Shown: positions 50,494 to 58,619 of the stretch, in pieces | Layout: each line of letters starts with the position of its first letter | Position numbering within the stretch: the first letter of the stretch is position 1 | Virus record (IMG/VR): IMGVR_UViG_3300028603_000001 | Coordinates: 64,001-128,000 of that record | DNA: 64,000 bases | Direction: 5' to 3' (one strand) | DNA from: a virus | Taxonomy: Duplodnaviria; Caudoviricetes | The notes under the pieces: generated by a model | Databases searched by the model: none | Told to the model about the DNA's origin: nothing | The model's input: only the letters and a program-made list of their open reading frames with translations | Position numbers and translations under genes: made by a program

Positions 50494-51976
50494 AAAACAC
50501 AAAGAGGAAAATATTGTTAATTTGTTTGATAGTTATGAAATAGATGAACCAATAAGAAAAAATAATAAAGAAATAAAAGAAGAACCAAAAACAAAAGATG
50601 CTCTAGAATTAGCTAGAGAAAATTATAAAGAATATGGAATATATGTTGGTTCAGGAAGAGCTTATCCACAGTTATTAGATGGTGCTAAGTCTAGCTATAA
50701 AAGAGCTATTTATGGAATGTGGAAAGATGCTCCTAGAAGAGTTGCTAAAGTAGCAGAATTAGCTGCAACAGCACTTCCCTACCACCCACATCCAACCTCA
50801 GTGGCTAATGTAATAATTCAATTAGGTGAAAATGGTAATAAATTCAAATTTATGCATACTCAAGGGAATTGGGGCGATTCTTCAAAAAAGATAGCAGCTT
50901 CTGCTGAAAGATATATTGGTGGTATGTTGTCTGATACAGCTATAATGTTACTTTGTGATAGCATTGAGTATTGTAATTTTATCACAGGTGAGATTGATAA
51001 ACCAGAACCAGAGGCTTTACCAACGCTTCTACCCATATGTTTTATAAATGGACAACAAGGTATTCCATCTGGTTTGCCTAAATTAAATATACCTCCATTA
51101 GATGTGGCAAATATGTTTGATTATTATATTGATATTTTAGAACACAAAAATTTGAATTATGTCCCAAATAAACTGCCTATCCCAAATCTAAACGTTAACA
51201 TATTATCAACAAAAGAAGAATGGGAAAATATATTAAAGACTGGTAATGGTAGTATTAGAATAGCTCCAATAATGAAATTTGAGGATAATATAATCACAAT
51301 AACTAATCTCCCAAAATCAAAAGATGTTGAAAGCATCCGCAAGATTATCGAAAAAGAAATACTTTTAGATAAGGTTGATCTGAGAGATGAGTCTACATAT
51401 GATACCAGGGTTGTCATTGAAAAAGTTTATAAGAAACAATGTGATATGAAAGAGCTTTATAATAGAATTTATAAAAAATTACAAACAACAGAAACTTACA
51501 ATTTAGCTTTTTTTGATATTAATCATATATATGTTCCTTGTAGTTTTGATAAAGTTGTTAAAAGCAATCTTAAATATTTAATAGATACGCATAACAGTAG
51601 ATTATCACATCAGCTAATTGATAATAACAAAAAACTAAGCGTCTTAGAAATTATTGAGCAATTAAAGAAAAAAAATAATTGGAAAGATATGTTTGACTTA
51701 TCCTTTAAAGATGCTATTAATTATTTGATAAATAATTTTAATTGTGATAAAGAAATTGCAGAAGAAGTTTTCAAAAAGCCTATTTCATATTTAACAAAAG
51801 GTCACGAAAAAGAAATTGAAGAATTAAGAAATATCATAAAAAACCTGAATACTGATAAACATGATATTTATGACATGCTTCTTAAAAAATATAAAGCATT
51901 AAAACCAAAAATGTTGAAAGAAATGAACAAAAATACAACATCTTTTATTAAAATAAATAAAACATTAAAAAAATAA
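50486..51976 (+). CDS. Type IIA topoisomerase A subunit, no C-terminal pinwheel
   Basis: RAYP..LDG.K...KR, YHPH, QGNWG, ASAERY catalytic Tyr, NG..GI. Confidence 0.9.
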   Translation: MAKKHKEENIVNLFDSYEIDEPIRKNNKEIKEEPKTKDALELARENYKEYGIYVGSGRAYPQLLDGAKSSYKRAIYGMWKDAPRRVAKVAELAATALPYHPHPTSVANVIIQLGENGNKFKFMHTQGNWGDSSKKIAASAERYIGGMLSDTAIMLLCDSIEYCNFITGEIDKPEPEALPTLLPICFINGQQGIPSGLPKLNIPPLDVANMFDYYIDILEHKNLNYVPNKLPIPNLNVNILSTKEEWENILKTGNGSIRIAPIMKFEDNIITITNLPKSKDVESIRKIIEKEILLDKVDLRDESTYDTRVVIEKVYKKQCDMKELYNRIYKKLQTTETYNLAFFDINHIYVPCSFDKVVKSNLKYLIDTHNSRLSHQLIDNNKKLSVLEIIEQLKKKNNWKDMFDLSFKDAINYLINNFNCDKEIAEEVFKKPISYLTKGHEKEIEELRNIIKNLNTDKHDIYDMLLKKYKALKPKMLKEMNKNTTSFIKINKTLKK

Positions 51977-52039
51977 TAGCTAAAATAAAAGTAGTATTAA
52001 ATGATAGAGTTAACATATTGTAAAATTTTTTAAATAAAT

Positions 52040-52070
52040 AGAAGATATTTAACGATATCTTCTTTTTTTA
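52040..52070 (+). terminator. Intrinsic terminator followed by ATTGTATA motif
   Basis: AGAAGATAT...ATATCTTCT then T run. Confidence 0.6.
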
Positions 52071-52097
52071 TTGTATATTATATTATGAATAAGTGAG

Positions 52098-52304
52098 GTG
52101 AGAAGTTTGAAATTATTTGTTAAAATTTTAATAACTTCTATTTTAGCGATAGGGTTTGTAACAGGTCTTGCTTATGTCGCATATATTCGTAGCGATATTA
52201 GCTTTATCCAATGCGTTCTTTACGTGTTAATTGCGGCAGGCATAGCATTAGGTTTTTGTGGTTTGATTGCATTGATTTGTAAAATGTGGTTTGATTGGAA
52301 TTAA
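52098..52304 (+). CDS. Small two-TM membrane protein
   Basis: Two hydrophobic helices. Confidence 0.5.
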   Translation: MRSLKLFVKILITSILAIGFVTGLAYVAYIRSDISFIQCVLYVLIAAGIALGFCGLIALICKMWFDWN

Positions 52305-52333
52305 TAAGAACTTAAATAAAAGGAGGCACACAA

Positions 52334-52639
52334 ATGGGAGAAAACAAAAATGAAATTATAGAAAAAGAAAAGAATATAACGAAAGAAAAAACAAATCTGA
52401 TGAATAAAGAAAGAAAGCGTGATATTGACCAAGAAAAAGCGTTGTTATCTAAAATAGTTGATGCTTGGGAATGGTTTGTGAAATTACCAAGACAACACCC
52501 AAATGAACATGATGAGTTCGCTACCGGGATACATATATTGCAATATATAACAGGCATGAGGATATTACGAAAAGAACACCCTGAACTTTTTCCGATAAAA
52601 TATTTTGAAGATGATGAAAGTAATGAAAAGGAGGAATAA
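52334..52639 (+). CDS. Hypothetical protein
   Basis: SD AGGAGG. Confidence 0.6.
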   Translation: MGENKNEIIEKEKNITKEKTNLMNKERKRDIDQEKALLSKIVDAWEWFVKLPRQHPNEHDEFATGIHILQYITGMRILRKEHPELFPIKYFEDDESNEKEE

Positions 52640-52643
52640 AAAT

Positions 52644-52988
52644 ATGAGAAATAAAAATATAATGTTTGAATTAACTGATATAAGTATTCTATTACAATAT
52701 TTATATCAAAGTGAAGATCACGAGGTAAGAATTAGAAATCCTTTTGCTTATTTAAGATATAAAATGGATGAAGAATTGAATATTTTATGGTTTAATGAAA
52801 ATTTTCCTGAATTAGGTTGGGGATATGCTCAGTTATCTTTTCAAGAATTATTAGCTATTAAAAGATTTTTAGAAGAAAATGTTGAAGATATCAAATTTCC
52901 TGAACTCTTTAAAAACAAGTGGGAAGAAATAAAACAAATAACTTTAACTAATAGGATGTTAAATGATAATATTAAGGGGGTGAGTTAA
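52644..52988 (+). CDS. Hypothetical protein
   Basis: SD AGGAGG before ATG 52644. Confidence 0.6.
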   Translation: MRNKNIMFELTDISILLQYLYQSEDHEVRIRNPFAYLRYKMDEELNILWFNENFPELGWGYAQLSFQELLAIKRFLEENVEDIKFPELFKNKWEEIKQITLTNRMLNDNIKGVS

Positions 52989-52989
52989 T

Positions 52990-54636
52990 ATAAAAACATT
53001 ATATAATTTTAAAAAATTTGTAGATGAAATTCTTGCAGATAATAGTAGAAATTATAAAATATCTGTACTTGAAAAATATAAAGATGATGAAGATATTAAA
53101 TATTATTTAGATTTTATTTTCAATCCTTTTATTACTACTGGAATATCAGATAAAAAATTAAACAGATTAACTGAAACAGATTACACAACAAAGTTAAATA
53201 CTATTAAAGATATTTTAGATTATTCTAAAACACATAATACAGGTAGTGATAAAGATTTATCAATAATATTTAGTAATCGAGATACTTTATTTGAAGATTT
53301 TGATCCTAAATCATTAGTTGACATTGAATATTTTAGAGATAAATTATTTGGTAATTTAAAAGTCCCTAAACAATTTTTTGAATTCACTGATGATGCAGCT
53401 GGATTTAGTGGAGGTTCTATATTATCAAGTAGATGTGATATTGAAGATAAAACAGTTAGATTAAATAAACTTAAATCGTTACTGGGTGATGCTATAGGTA
53501 ATCCAGAAGTTATTAGTTATATTCAACAATATATTGATGGGTTATTAGCAGAAAAAGAAAGAAAGCAAGAACAAGATTTTCAAGATTTAGATGCATCGCT
53601 ATATAATTTATTTAATAAAATTTTAATTAAAAATTTGCAACTAGGTGTTGATGTAAAAACTATAAATAAAGTAATTCCTAATTTAATACCGACATTTAAT
53701 GTTATGTTAGCAAATAAATATTTTGATGATGTAAAATTCGTAGAAGGAAAAGAATTTGCTTTAACTACTAAAATTGATGGTGGACGTATTGTTGCAATTA
53801 AGAAAAATGGCGATGTTAAATTCTATACTCGCTCTGGTCAATTATACGAAGGTCTAGTTGATTTAGAAGAAGAAATGAAATTATATATGCCTGATAACAT
53901 TATGTTAGATGGGGAAATTACTTTATTAAATGATTATGAAGTATTATATGATTTAAAATATAATGAACCCTGTATTGGTCATAAATTAACATCAAAAGAG
54001 CAATATAAAGAAACTATGAAAATCACTAGAAAAGATGGTGAAAAACATGGTGTTAAAATGTTAGTGTTTGATGGAATGTCTGTTGAAGATTTTGAAAATC
54101 AAACTAATAGTGTTCCATATATCAACAGAAGGGGTAAGCTTGAAGAGTTTTGGAACCATGCGGAAAACTGTGGACATAAAATGATTTACTTTGAATTACT
54201 TCCTATTCTGTATCGAGGAACCGACTCATCTGAAATCACTAAATGGCTCAACTACAGCATTGAACATGGTGAAGAAGGCGTTATGATCAACATATGTGAT
54301 GCTCCTTATGAGTTTAAGCGAACTAAAAACTTATTAAAAGTTAAAAAGATGGATACATTAGATTTACGTGTCATAGATTTAGAATGCGGGACAAATGCAA
54401 ATAGCGACAGACTAGGAGCTTTCATTTGTGAATATAAAGATGGTAATATTGTAAAAGTTGGAACTGGTATTTCCCAAGAGCTGCGAATTGAAATATGGAA
54501 CAATAAAAAAGACTGGTTAAATACTATTATTGAAGTACAATTTTTTGAAGAGACTGAAAATGCTAACGGTGGAAAATCACTTAGATTCCCGGTATATAAA
54601 GGTAGACGATTAGATAAAAATATTCCAGATTATTAA
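52990..54636 (+). CDS. ATP-dependent DNA ligase (extends 215 codons upstream of the track ORF; ATA start)
   Basis: Open frame from ATA 52990 after SD AAGGGGGTGA; KIDGGR adenylation motif, LDGE, EGVM, LLKVK, SLRFP. Confidence 0.88.
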   Translation: MKTLYNFKKFVDEILADNSRNYKISVLEKYKDDEDIKYYLDFIFNPFITTGISDKKLNRLTETDYTTKLNTIKDILDYSKTHNTGSDKDLSIIFSNRDTLFEDFDPKSLVDIEYFRDKLFGNLKVPKQFFEFTDDAAGFSGGSILSSRCDIEDKTVRLNKLKSLLGDAIGNPEVISYIQQYIDGLLAEKERKQEQDFQDLDASLYNLFNKILIKNLQLGVDVKTINKVIPNLIPTFNVMLANKYFDDVKFVEGKEFALTTKIDGGRIVAIKKNGDVKFYTRSGQLYEGLVDLEEEMKLYMPDNIMLDGEITLLNDYEVLYDLKYNEPCIGHKLTSKEQYKETMKITRKDGEKHGVKMLVFDGMSVEDFENQTNSVPYINRRGKLEEFWNHAENCGHKMIYFELLPILYRGTDSSEITKWLNYSIEHGEEGVMINICDAPYEFKRTKNLLKVKKMDTLDLRVIDLECGTNANSDRLGAFICEYKDGNIVKVGTGISQELRIEIWNNKKDWLNTIIEVQFFEETENANGGKSLRFPVYKGRRLDKNIPDY

Positions 54637-54884
54637 TGCATATATACATTTAACCCTTGATTCTCCAATAGAATTTTAAGTTCTCTTAACGTTTACTAAA
54701 TGGTTAATAACTTAACATCTAATAAGAATTATTAGCAAGACAACTGAAATTTACAAAATTAAAAAAATAAATTGTATATTATTATATATAATTAAAAATA
54801 TAAAAAATCTTAGCGATAAGGTTTTTTATTAGCTAAATTATACACATCAGGTTATTATAATATGTACCTGTAAACTATTTTATA

Positions 54885-54958
54885 ATTAAAAGCCACACCA
54901 CAGGCAACTGTGGGCCGGAAAGCCAGAGGGACTCTCAGTAGTCAGCCGTGCTGCAGAA
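54885..54958 (+). promoter_or_regulatory. c-di-GMP-I (GEMM) riboswitch
   Basis: GCCACAC-CACAG-GCAA-CTGTG-GGCCGGAAAGCC...GGGACT...AGTCAGCCG-TGCTGCA; GNRA-capped P2, AAAGC junction, CAGCC; GC-rich island in AT-rich DNA. Confidence 0.75.
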
Positions 54959-54968
54959 AGAGGTAATT

Positions 54969-55538
54969 ATGAAAAACAAAAAAGAAAAAATTAATTTAAG
55001 AAAATTTTTATTTGTACTACCCTTGCTTTTATTAGCTCTAATCACAACAGTAGTAGCTACTTTTGCTTGGTGGAATACGTTAACAGTTGAAAAAGATTTT
55101 GATGGAACAATTGGTGACTCAGTCGTATTAAAATTAACAGCTGCTGATTTCAGTGGTGTTCTGGTTCCTGAAGATGTATATGATAATGACGAAGATATTT
55201 TAAATCAAGGTTGGGTAAAAGTATGGTCAACAAACTTAAACTTTACTGTCGATAGAACAGATACAACAGGTGATTCTTTTGTATTAACTATCACACCTGT
55301 TAAAATTTTTGTTGATGGAGTTGATCGAAGTTCTTATTTTGATTTGAAAATTTTAGATGGTGAAGATGATGACCTAAGCTATGATATTAATACTGCTAAA
55401 ACTTTAACGTTAAAATTAAGTTTTAGAGATATATTAGAAGAAGAACAAGAGGAGGTTAGAACAACATTCGCAGGATTCGCAGGGGAACAGTTAACTATAA
55501 CAATTGAAGCAAAAATCACAGCACAACCACAACCCTAA
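54969..55538 (+). CDS. Secreted protein with SipW-class signal peptide (TasA/CalY-like)
   Basis: Basic N-region, hydrophobic core, ATFAWW cleavage motif; beta-rich mature part. Confidence 0.65.
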   Translation: MKNKKEKINLRKFLFVLPLLLLALITTVVATFAWWNTLTVEKDFDGTIGDSVVLKLTAADFSGVLVPEDVYDNDEDILNQGWVKVWSTNLNFTVDRTDTTGDSFVLTITPVKIFVDGVDRSSYFDLKILDGEDDDLSYDINTAKTLTLKLSFRDILEEEQEEVRTTFAGFAGEQLTITIEAKITAQPQP

Positions 55539-56257: not shown

Positions 56258-56321
56258 ATTTAATTAATTGTATATTATTATGAATGAATAAATCATAAAA
56301 TATAAATTTTTGGAGGTTAAA

Positions 56322-58619
56322 ATGAGAGTATTATTATTAATGAGAGGTGCTCCTGGTTGTGGTAAAACGACATGGATTAAAAACCATAATTTAGAAGATT
56401 ATACGTTATCACCAGATGAATTAAGAATTAAATGTAGTTCTCTAGAATTACAACCAACAGGTGAATTAAAAGTTTCACAAAATCAAGAAAATGAAAGTGC
56501 TGTTTGGAGTATTTTATTTAAACTTCTAGAACATAGAATGTCTCGTGGAGAGTTTACTGTTATAGACGCCACATGTTCTAAAACGAAAGATATTAAACAA
56601 TATAAAGAATTAGCTGATCAATATAGATATAGAATGTATATAGTTGATTTCACAAAAGTATCTTTAGAAACATGCCTAAAACAAAATAAAATGAGACCAG
56701 AACATAAATGGGTTCCAGAGAGAGCTATTGAAAATATCTATGCTAGATTTGCAACACAACAAATTCCCAGTGGTGTAACCATTATTCAACCAGATGATTT
56801 TGATGCAGTATTAGAAAAACCATTTGATGTTTCTGAATATAAAAGAATAGTATTTATTGGAGATATTCATGGATGTTATGATACACTAATGCAATATCCA
56901 GATTTTAAAAATGGTTTAAGAGATGATACAGAATATATTTTCTTAGGAGATTATATTGATAGAGGCAATCAAAATGCAGAAGTGTTGCATTGGTTATTCT
57001 CTATTATGAATAAACCAAATGTATGTTTATTAGAAGGAAATCATGAGAAGTGGATCAGGGATTATGGAAATAGTGTTCCTGCTAAATCAAGGGAGTTTGA
57101 ACATAAAACAAAACAGCAATTAATGAGCGGTGGTTTTGATGAAAAAATGGCAAGGATGTTATACAGGAAAGTAAGACAATTCTCTCATATTACATGGAAT
57201 GGAATTGAAATTTTAGCTTGCCACGCAGGAATCCCACATTTACAACATAATCTATTGTATGTTCCATCTATTGATTTTATTCAAGGTGTTGGAAAATATG
57301 CTGATTATTTAGCAGTTGCTGAAACATGGATGGGCAAAACAAACTTAAATCAATATCTAATTCATGGTCATAGAAATGTTGAAGGTGACGAAACACAAAT
57401 TGCCGATAGAGTATTCAATTTAGAAGGTAGAGTTGAATTTGGAGGTAAGTTAAGAATTGTTGAATTATCAATGGAATATTTAATGCCTGAATATGGTTAT
57501 ACTGCTGATGGAGGAAGAATCCCAATAGGTGTTATCACAACTCCAAGCTGGAATGTTGTTGAGTTAGATGATTGCCAACCAATTACAAAAGAGTTAAATA
57601 CAGAGGAACGAAAAGTTGAAACAGTAGCAGATGCAATTACATATTTACAAAATAATAAATATGTTCAAGAAAAAGCACTAGGCGATGGAATATCTTCATT
57701 TAATTTTACTAGAGAAGCTTTTTTTAAAGGTAACTGGAATAGACAGACTGTTCTAGCTAGAGGTTTATTTATAGACACGAAGAATAAAAAAATTATGGCT
57801 AGATCATATAAAAAGTTCTTTAATATTAATGAAGTTAGAGAAACTGAATTAGTATCACTAAGAGAAAAATTGCAATTTCCTGTAACTGCATACGTTAAAG
57901 AAAATGGATTTTTAGCTATTGTTTCTTATGATTATATTAACGATGATTTATTTATAGCTTCTAAATCAACCAATAAAGGTCCTTATGTGGAGTATATTAA
58001 AAAAGCTATTGAACCTTATCGAGAAAGGTTATTAGAATACTTTAGAGAATTATATAAGAGAGCTAACGACATTAACGGTCAAATAGCTACATTTGTATTT
58101 GAATGTATAGATGTTGAAAATGACCCACATATAATCAAGTACAATGAAAGTAAATTAATTCTATTAGATGTTATATTAAATAGCTTAGATTATAAAGCAC
58201 TTAATTACAAAGAATTAAACCTTGTTGCAAAATTAATACCAGATTGTCCTGTAAAAGAAAAAGCTTTTGAAATAAAAGACTGGGATGCGTTTAGAGACCT
58301 TTATAATGAAATTCAATCAGAAGAGTATCAATATAATGGAAAATATATTGAAGGATTTGTATTTGTTGACGAAGCTGGTTTTATGACTAAGTGTAAAACA
58401 GGTTATTATAATCAATGGAAGAAATTAAGGGGAATTACAGATCAAACTTTAAGACGTGGATATATCACTAAAACTGGTATGCTAACAACTTCTTTAGAAA
58501 ATATGTATTATGGATTTTTAAAAGACTTATATAAAAATGATTATAATAAAGAAACAAAAATTTATCCATATAAAACAGATATTATATCATTAAGAGAAAA
58601 GTTCTTAAAGGAGAATTAA
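56322..58619 (+). CDS. Pnkp-like RNA repair enzyme: kinase + metallophosphoesterase + RNA ligase
   Basis: GAPGCGKT, GDIHG/GDYIDRG/GNHE/HGH, ARGLF, KFFN, KENGFL, EGFV. Confidence 0.88.
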   Translation: MRVLLLMRGAPGCGKTTWIKNHNLEDYTLSPDELRIKCSSLELQPTGELKVSQNQENESAVWSILFKLLEHRMSRGEFTVIDATCSKTKDIKQYKELADQYRYRMYIVDFTKVSLETCLKQNKMRPEHKWVPERAIENIYARFATQQIPSGVTIIQPDDFDAVLEKPFDVSEYKRIVFIGDIHGCYDTLMQYPDFKNGLRDDTEYIFLGDYIDRGNQNAEVLHWLFSIMNKPNVCLLEGNHEKWIRDYGNSVPAKSREFEHKTKQQLMSGGFDEKMARMLYRKVRQFSHITWNGIEILACHAGIPHLQHNLLYVPSIDFIQGVGKYADYLAVAETWMGKTNLNQYLIHGHRNVEGDETQIADRVFNLEGRVEFGGKLRIVELSMEYLMPEYGYTADGGRIPIGVITTPSWNVVELDDCQPITKELNTEERKVETVADAITYLQNNKYVQEKALGDGISSFNFTREAFFKGNWNRQTVLARGLFIDTKNKKIMARSYKKFFNINEVRETELVSLREKLQFPVTAYVKENGFLAIVSYDYINDDLFIASKSTNKGPYVEYIKKAIEPYRERLLEYFRELYKRANDINGQIATFVFECIDVENDPHIIKYNESKLILLDVILNSLDYKALNYKELNLVAKLIPDCPVKEKAFEIKDWDAFRDLYNEIQSEEYQYNGKYIEGFVFVDEAGFMTKCKTGYYNQWKKLRGITDQTLRRGYITKTGMLTTSLENMYYGFLKDLYKNDYNKETKIYPYKTDIISLREKFLKEN

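Follow-up and report, generated by a model that had tools for sequence, protein, structure and literature searches.

A portal-derived segment inside the DNA-binding domain of a DNA ligase from an uncultured phage

Introduction

Illegitimate recombination at short homologies gives rise to mosaic phage genes, and the repair of double-strand breaks to templated insertions. Here, a 64,000 bp window (bases 64001–128000) of the 180.8-kb virus record IMGVR_UViG_3300028603_000001 (Duplodnaviria; Caudoviricetes; G+C content of 29%, terminal overlap of 50 bases) was analysed with regard to a DNA ligase gene located at 52990–54636 of the window, which is the sole ATP-dependent ligase gene of this 181-kb uncultured phage genome. 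By every sequence and fold feature tested, the gene belongs to the family of T4 DNA ligase (gp30, PDB 6DT1) and Pmar-Lig (PDB 6RAR, 6RAS and 6RAU), in which a helical DNA-binding domain is followed by a nucleotidyltransferase domain and an oligonucleotide/oligosaccharide-binding (OB) fold domain. Within the first of these domains, the gene carries two in-frame pieces derived from a gene for a T4-type portal protein (gp20, PF07230, PDB 3JA7; PMC4493910), with a net gain of 76 codons.

Portal origin of the inserted segment

Features of the insert and of the gene that holds it are given below in window coordinates, with orientation.

52990–54636, plus strand: ATP-dependent DNA ligase gene of the T4 / Pmar-Lig type, 548 codons plus stop.
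53296–53304, plus strand: left junction, a 9-base microhomology GATTTTGAT (codons D-F-D) common to the insert-free ligase and the portal gene.
53296–53434, plus strand: portal piece A, comprising the end of the channel loop, stem helix alpha7, the tunnel loop and the first residues of helix alpha8.
53305–53567, plus strand: 263 bases in place of 35 bases (12 codons) in the insert-free allele, net gain 76 codons.
53435–53575, plus strand: portal piece B, comprising a helix of the crown domain and the beginning of the charged tail (residues 513 to about 557 of the own portal).

The Portal_T4 profile (PF07230) matched residues 100–142 of the ligase with an E-value of 4e-5 for the whole protein and 2.4e-5 for the 95-residue segment alone; the match lay just over the curated cut-off and covered profile positions 272–316 of 433. 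When the ligase region was compared with the whole genome by blastn, exactly two further matches were obtained, both within the phage's own portal gene (G000:C1:36125-38002, minus strand), which lies outside the window, about 80 kb from the ligase and on the opposite strand. Identity to this gene was 87.5% at 53296–53407 (E-value 7e-35) and 76.6% at 53435–53575 (E-value 1e-24). In a self-comparison of the genome, the portal/ligase pair was the only long-range repeat between unrelated genes, and all of the 140 database matches obtained with the insert alone (140/140) were PF07230 portals.

On the basis of alignment to T4 gp20, with the domain limits of Sun et al. 2015 (PMC4493910; clip at T4 residues 279–358), piece A corresponds to own-portal residues 394–441 (about 353–401 of T4 gp20) and piece B to residues 513 to about 557, the whole portal being 625 residues long. 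About 70 portal residues are missing between the two pieces, and three more within piece A. Both the clip, the attachment site of terminase, neck and tail, and the wing, with the main capsid contacts (PMC4493910), are absent. In total, the insert holds about 85 of the 625 portal residues (about 14%), including one of the two stem helices and nothing of the bent helix alpha8 beyond its first residues, and by this alignment it is not to be regarded as a member of the portal family.

An initial annotation of the window, made without database searches, had described a portal-like in-frame segment at 53296–53580 within the N-terminal domain of the ligase, and had taken its second half for a more C-terminal portal helix, implying an internal deletion. 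The first of these claims was confirmed by blastn, by the Portal_T4 match and by a match to a PHROG portal family, and the second by the residues to which the two pieces map. The comparison suggested there, with the portal of the same genome and with portal profiles, corresponds to the blastn and Portal_T4 matches above.

An intein or intron was considered as the identity of the segment and rejected: an intein would have Cys, Ser or Thr as its first residue, His-Asn as its last two and a nucleophile next to it, whereas the insert starts with Pro-Lys-Ser and ends with Lys-Gln followed by Glu, and it had no intein or Hint match in Pfam.

Junctions and insertion site

The closest ligases without the insert were P0001 (89% identical), P0002, P0003 and others. 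An insert-free allele was also present in contigs of runs X2 and X6, where 53304 is joined to 53568 with 35 other bases between, and these 35 bases encode the 12 residues that are present in P0001. These contigs and the alignment with related ligases, which the initial annotation had recommended, placed the insert at 53305–53567, absent from P0001, P0002 and P0003.

At the internal junction, the codon TGT (53434–53436) can be read as one base of piece A and two of piece B. The right junction falls in an A/G-rich stretch of low complexity, where portal similarity extends to about 53575 and ligase homology resumes at 53568; the end first assigned to the segment, 53580, was within a few bases of both. 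The distance between two conserved anchors that flank the site was 38–62 residues in 101 homologues and 138 residues here, and the loop differed in length even among close relatives (alignment A1). By alignment, the insertion site is a length-variable, permissive surface loop of the N-terminal DNA-binding domain.

Eight bases within the insert, GATGATGC at 53392–53399 (Asp-Asp-Ala), are common to the insert and the ancestral 35-base loop, the portals having Asp-Asp-Gly; this sharing may be either a coincidence or the trace of a more complex patchwork.

Independent assemblies

Contigs that carry the insert were recovered from three studies.

53086–53721: run X1 (landfill, likely source sample), 636-base Logan contig with zero differences from the window.
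53161–53393 and 53373–53523: run X5 (wastewater, another study), contigs across the left junction (4 differences) and across the internal junction (3 differences).
53214–53678: run X6 (landfill, another study), 468-base contig with 30 substitutions and no gap.

The depth of the X1 contig was 37, as compared with 33.5 for the adjoining 68-kb flank contig and 32 for the portal contig. Collapse of a repeat is excluded, because the insert differs by 12–23% from the portal copy of the same genome. The X6 contig is regarded as the same insertion event, 6.5% diverged, because it agrees with the window at 17 of the 20 listed positions that distinguish portal contigs from the window. Support at the junctions, on which the initial annotation had made its claim depend, was thus found in a source-run contig that spans both outer junctions and in the contigs of X5 and X6. 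Protein fragments of the diverged insert-bearing allele were looked for and none was found. As regards habitat, small-share runs outside this contig comparison were left out of account.

Run X1 also holds a relative that is 4-5x more abundant (depth 147–165 against 33–37), recognized at 53086–53157 and 53620–53721. Its ligase has a different 183-base loop, and its upstream gene is different, as in L007.

Occurrence in other ligases

No portal Pfam domain was present among the best 120 of 2431 ligase homologues. Scans with peptide patterns gave no second ligase with a portal insert in IMG/VR or in JGI contigs, and none was found in a set of 5.8 billion proteins, in 1.84 billion representatives or in GenBank phages. 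The sole match of the degenerate left-junction pattern in IMG/VR (L070) was discarded as a GC-rich chance match.

Donor lineage

A maximum likelihood tree was built from 83 columns and 103 portals. The insert was placed as sister to P0121, the portal of a related phage from another metagenome, with ultrafast bootstrap (UFBoot) and SH-like approximate likelihood ratio test (SH-aLRT) supports of 99 and 92, and this pair was sister to the group of the own portal (84/61). Likewise, the best match of the insert among the 140 portal matches was P0121 and not the own portal, P0122. Within the first 33 crown residues, P0121 was identical to the insert at 30 and the own portal at 26, and both P0121 and the insert have Ser after the Gly-Gly of the tunnel loop. 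The identity of the portal DNA retrieved to the insert did not exceed 88% in piece A and 80% in piece B, and the DNA of P0121 was not found in IMG/VR or in one metagenome scan. On the tree and these shared residues, the donor is taken to be a P0121-like portal, either of a co-infecting relative or of an earlier state of this mosaic lineage. Capture of portal sequence by recombination, as first proposed, is therefore strongly supported by blastn, alignments and contigs as regards a portal-gene donor with an internal deletion; the part of the proposal that named the portal gene of this genome as the source needs correction, the insert being sister to P0121.

In the first 40 codons, the own portal and the insert differed by 15 synonymous and 3 non-synonymous changes, and the ratio of non-synonymous to synonymous substitution rates (dN/dS) against the own portal was 0.02 for piece A and 0.15–0.35 for piece B. 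The low ratios, at first suggestive of strong purifying selection, were rejected as evidence of selection on the insert, since the tree points to a different donor lineage and most of the divergence accrued between portals. Because the donor is P0121-like, this dN/dS, which had been called for at the outset, mostly measures portal-portal divergence and not selection on the insert.

In related phages, six portals of 800–1100 residues (P0272, P0291, P0294, P0301, P0312 and P0340) contain an intein with an HNH nuclease. Its insertion point is precisely where the tunnel loop begins, behind the conserved VPKQ-aromatic-Phe motif, a position within the stretch covered by piece A; the own portal and P0121 have no intein. 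With such nuclease-bearing inteins in related portals, breaks and their repair in mixed infections should be common in this phage group.

Exchange of sequence was also seen elsewhere in the ligase gene, as follows.

54367–54476, plus strand: mosaic patch in the OB domain, equal in length to its counterpart in the ligase of the closest relative, from which it has strongly diverged, and resembling P0009 and P0003.

The patch comprises 108 bases, and the rest of the gene is 95–97% identical to the P0001-type allele, with 97.5% over 52900–53304; this allele shares the upstream gene. The patch indicates, from its pattern of similarity, homologous exchange among co-circulating phages.

Changes since capture

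The tip branch of the insert in the portal tree was 0.16 long, which is 2.6x that of its sister P0121 (0.062); the tip branch of the own portal was 0.038. Sites invariant, or nearly so, in portals were judged from 12 aligned portal genes and 14 portal proteins, and the changes private to the insert hit such positions in all aligned portals. These changes were FFG to FFE and DDG to DDA at the start of the tunnel loop, GFN to GFS and a loss of 3 codons within it, and Ile to Lys in the crown helix, as is predicted by relaxed portal constraint. By our estimate, about six or seven changes in 83 codons are close to the neutral expectation over the 2.5–6.5% divergence of the ligase alleles, which suggests that the insert has drifted at about the neutral rate since its capture.

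Ligase gene and start codon

The remaining features of the gene are the following.

52974–52983, plus strand: Shine-Dalgarno-like purine run AAGGGGGTGA ahead of the ligase, read from the sequence.
52990–52992, plus strand: probable ligase start codon ATA; relatives have ATG there, followed by nearly identical bases.
53707–54345, plus strand: nucleotidyltransferase (adenylation) domain with the motif I lysine intact (PF01068, DNA_ligase_A_M, E-value 1.8e-16).
54388–54606, plus strand: OB-fold domain (PF14743, DNA_ligase_OB_2, E-value 1.8e-10).

All family-invariant residues of the ligase were retained in an alignment of 41 homologues (A2), with K261, D263, G264 and R266 of motif I (KxDGxR) and R532, F533, P534, R540 and D542 of motif VI at invariant columns. 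The N-terminal helical DNA-binding domain was recognized by phrog_12420 and phrog_114 at residues 4–106 and is interrupted by the insert; accordingly split, the PHROG ligase match covered residues 8–91 and 202–549, with the portal family between. The ligase profile match to 6RAU and 6DT1 begins at about residue 9. The AlphaFold model had a mean predicted local distance difference test score (pLDDT) of 84.9 with confident ligase domains, and its best fold matches were Pmar-Lig (6RAR) and T4 ligase (6DT1). The insert was modelled as short helices, residues 121–152 with pLDDT <50, and a long helix running into the next ligase helix. The insert probably forms a helical arm that projects from the DNA-binding domain and includes a disordered loop.

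From 52984 onwards, the ligase frame runs open over 550 codons up to its stop codon (54634–54636), and upstream it is closed by TGA at 52981–52983. The corresponding entry in the list of open reading frames (ORFs) begins at TTG 53635, and the first 217 codons were missed because there is no ATG, GTG or TTG before that position. This explains the gap in the ORF track from which the initial annotation had started; its reading of an intact frame was also right, to which a non-standard start, ATA, has to be added as a correction.

P0001–P0042 have Met at the alignment column of the ATA codon (protein alignment A1), and L007 has ATG at this position followed by nearly identical bases. The ATA itself was confirmed by a Logan contig of the source run, which is identical to the window over 52900–53098 with zero differences. 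The codon lies one base past the TAA stop of the upstream gene and 6–9 bases downstream of a strong purine-rich ribosome-binding site. In bacteria, ATA initiates translation very poorly. From this arrangement, low-level coupled initiation at ATA behind the upstream stop is plausible, and the ligase is probably still made, at a low level, from this codon.

Two other modes of expression were rejected. The internal start TTG 53635, the choice of gene callers (P0004), has no ribosome-binding site and would lose the whole DNA-binding domain. There is no room for a shift of frame between the upstream gene and the ligase, since TGA stands at 52981–52983 in the ligase frame. A scan of 51900–55000 for promoters and terminators gave nothing above the shuffled background, and no homing nuclease adjoining the ligase was found.

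The neighbours of the ligase are topoisomerase II subunits, small ORFs of unknown function and a kinase/phosphatase/RNA-ligase fusion. Two genes upstream, the small ORF 52334–52639 matched a 67-position PHROG named 'DNA ligase' (phrog_13916, E-value 4e-11), and it is probably, by this match, a small protein that accompanies the ligase genes of phages. Downstream, 56310–58619 encodes a 769-residue fusion of polynucleotide kinase, phosphatase and RNA ligase, an RNA-repair enzyme (phrog_8238, E-value 3e-196). At the ends of the record (G000:C1:1-50 and 180751-180800), the 'direct terminal repeat' is an exact overlap of 50 bases, which looks like a signature of circular assembly and not like a physical terminal repeat.

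Discussion

Present evidence favours an ordinary explanation: the insert is probably a scar that microhomology-mediated recombination left in a length-variable loop and that the enzyme tolerates, and no working part of a portal. In a recent ancestor, the ligase gene would have been interrupted by a break or a stalled fork in the variable surface loop, and repair would have proceeded by copying from a P0121-like portal gene, primed at the 9-base microhomology. One template jump inside the portal gene would have passed over about 70 codons, and copying would have returned to the ligase within the A/G-rich stretch. The captured piece, without portal function, would have drifted since. All of the junctions are in frame because only in-frame products keep the sole ligase working.

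Some points weigh against the scar. Its break-and-copy mechanism is one that we infer from the anatomy of the junctions. The stem-helix part, 28 residues long, has stayed identical to the portal while the rest changed, with an estimated probability of about 0.1 under neutrality, which is only weakly unexpected and no evidence of selection, but leaves room for constraint. Furthermore, the insert allele has persisted in three environments and over 6.5% divergence with no insertion or deletion, so that the frame was kept. Both the neutrality of the insert and the use of ATA are likewise read indirectly, from the changes it carries and from the setting of the codon. Directly established are the family of the donor, the limits of the insert and its microhomology, its occurrence in three studies, the intactness of the ligase core and the replacement or loss of residues invariant in portals.

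A second explanation, which we regard as unlikely, is that the ligase itself is decaying, the change of ATG to ATA and the 76-codon insertion being recent hits under relaxed selection, for instance where the host ligase suffices; the open frame would then merely reflect the youth of the changes. Both changes do belong to one short branch that postdates the separation from the P0001-type allele with its Met start, and the poor initiation expected from ATA in bacteria agrees with decay, as do several amino-acid differences from P0001 in the DNA-binding domain among few nucleotide differences. Yet the 548 codons are open at 29% G+C with all family-invariant residues kept, and the genome has no backup for this ATP-dependent ligase. 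The 6.5%-diverged allele of X6, from another study, has no insertion or deletion in 465 bases, and the strong ribosome-binding site 6–9 bases before ATA, directly past the upstream stop, makes coupled initiation plausible.

A functional role of the portal pieces is rather less likely still. In its general form, the stem and crown helices would have been co-opted as a docking module, by which the ligase is brought to the portal or prohead, or a host portal sensor is engaged. Two such roles, a tether to the packaging vertex and a decoy for portal-sensing defence, had been put forward speculatively in the initial annotation, and for neither was supporting evidence found.

As a portal mimic, the insert would dock the ligase on portal rings or proheads through its stem and crown helices, and nick sealing would take place at the site of packaging. 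The unchanged 28-residue stem helix and the persistence of the allele in three studies are in line with this, all four portal subdomains take part in inter-subunit contacts in the model of a related portal (PMC12847820), and full heads of T4 need ligase according to Zachary and Black 1981, as cited in PMC10893049. Against such docking stand the small share of the portal that was captured (about 85 of 625 residues), the loss of the wing with its main capsid contacts and of the clip at which terminase and neck dock (PMC4493910), and the replacement of portal-invariant residues, including Ile to Lys in the core of the crown helix. The insert branch is 2.6x that of its sister, part of the insert is predicted to be disordered, and nothing similar was found in any other ligase among thousands. 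We consider mimicry of this kind improbable.

A decoy is more doubtful again, and in our view very improbable. The early-made ligase would show a portal epitope and thereby soak up, or prematurely occupy, a sensor such as Avs4, Avs11 or one like SpbK, and several defence systems do sense portal proteins. The clip and wing, which form most of the known sensor interfaces, are absent however, and SpbK docks on the clip only; an early portal-like epitope could equally trigger the sensor, and the changes at conserved portal sites argue against faithful mimicry. Avs2, which the initial annotation had named as an example, does not fit the idea, as it senses the terminase, the portal sensors being Avs4 and Avs11 (bioRxiv 10.64898/2026.08.25.746987).

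Finally, an assembly chimera of the ligase and portal genes, for which speak the metagenomic assembly of the record and the similar sequence shared by the two genes, has a negligible chance of being correct, given that the insert is only 77–88% identical to the portal copy of the same genome and so no repeat was collapsed, that the source run, when assembled independently, yields the insert again at matching depth, that the junctions are crossed by contigs of two further studies, and that all three junctions are in frame.

As a tolerated scar, the insert documents microhomology-mediated, multi-jump copying of template between unrelated phage genes. It offers a clean case, open to dating, of the origin of new protein segments in phages: part of a gene for a late structural protein has been copied, with the frame kept, into that of an early essential enzyme. 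It also shows that, at this loop, the helical DNA-binding domain of a T4-type ligase can accommodate 76 additional residues, a property of use in engineering. Were the segment functional, ligation would be physically linked to packaging or to evasion of portal sensing, and this would be new biology; a docking module in particular would represent a natural case of a replication enzyme gaining the epitope of a structural protein for localisation or immune evasion.

Comparison with known systems

The enzyme is of a known kind, and so is the process. Not seen in the other ligases searched is the presence of a portal fragment, and the documentation of the case is unusually good, since public data contain the allele without the insert, the lineage of the donor and a diverged descendant. 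In comparison with T4 DNA ligase and Pmar-Lig, the three-part layout is the same and the catalytic motifs are intact, the differences being the net 76-residue foreign segment in the loop of the DNA-binding domain and the ATA start. With respect to the T4-type portal gp20, the insert has 80–90% protein identity to the portals of this phage group; it differs from gp20 in lacking the clip, the wing and the bent helix alpha8, in having invariant tunnel-loop residues replaced and three deleted, and in its position inside another enzyme. Inteins in phage replication and packaging genes are similarly in-frame extra segments within essential genes, but the ligase insert has neither splicing residues nor a nuclease and is derived from portal coding sequence. 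As in the mosaics of illegitimate recombination and in templated insertions, there is a 9-base microhomology at one junction and there are two template pieces. Such mosaics usually join whole genes or modules at gene borders, whereas here a fragment of a structural gene lies in frame inside an essential enzyme, and persists.

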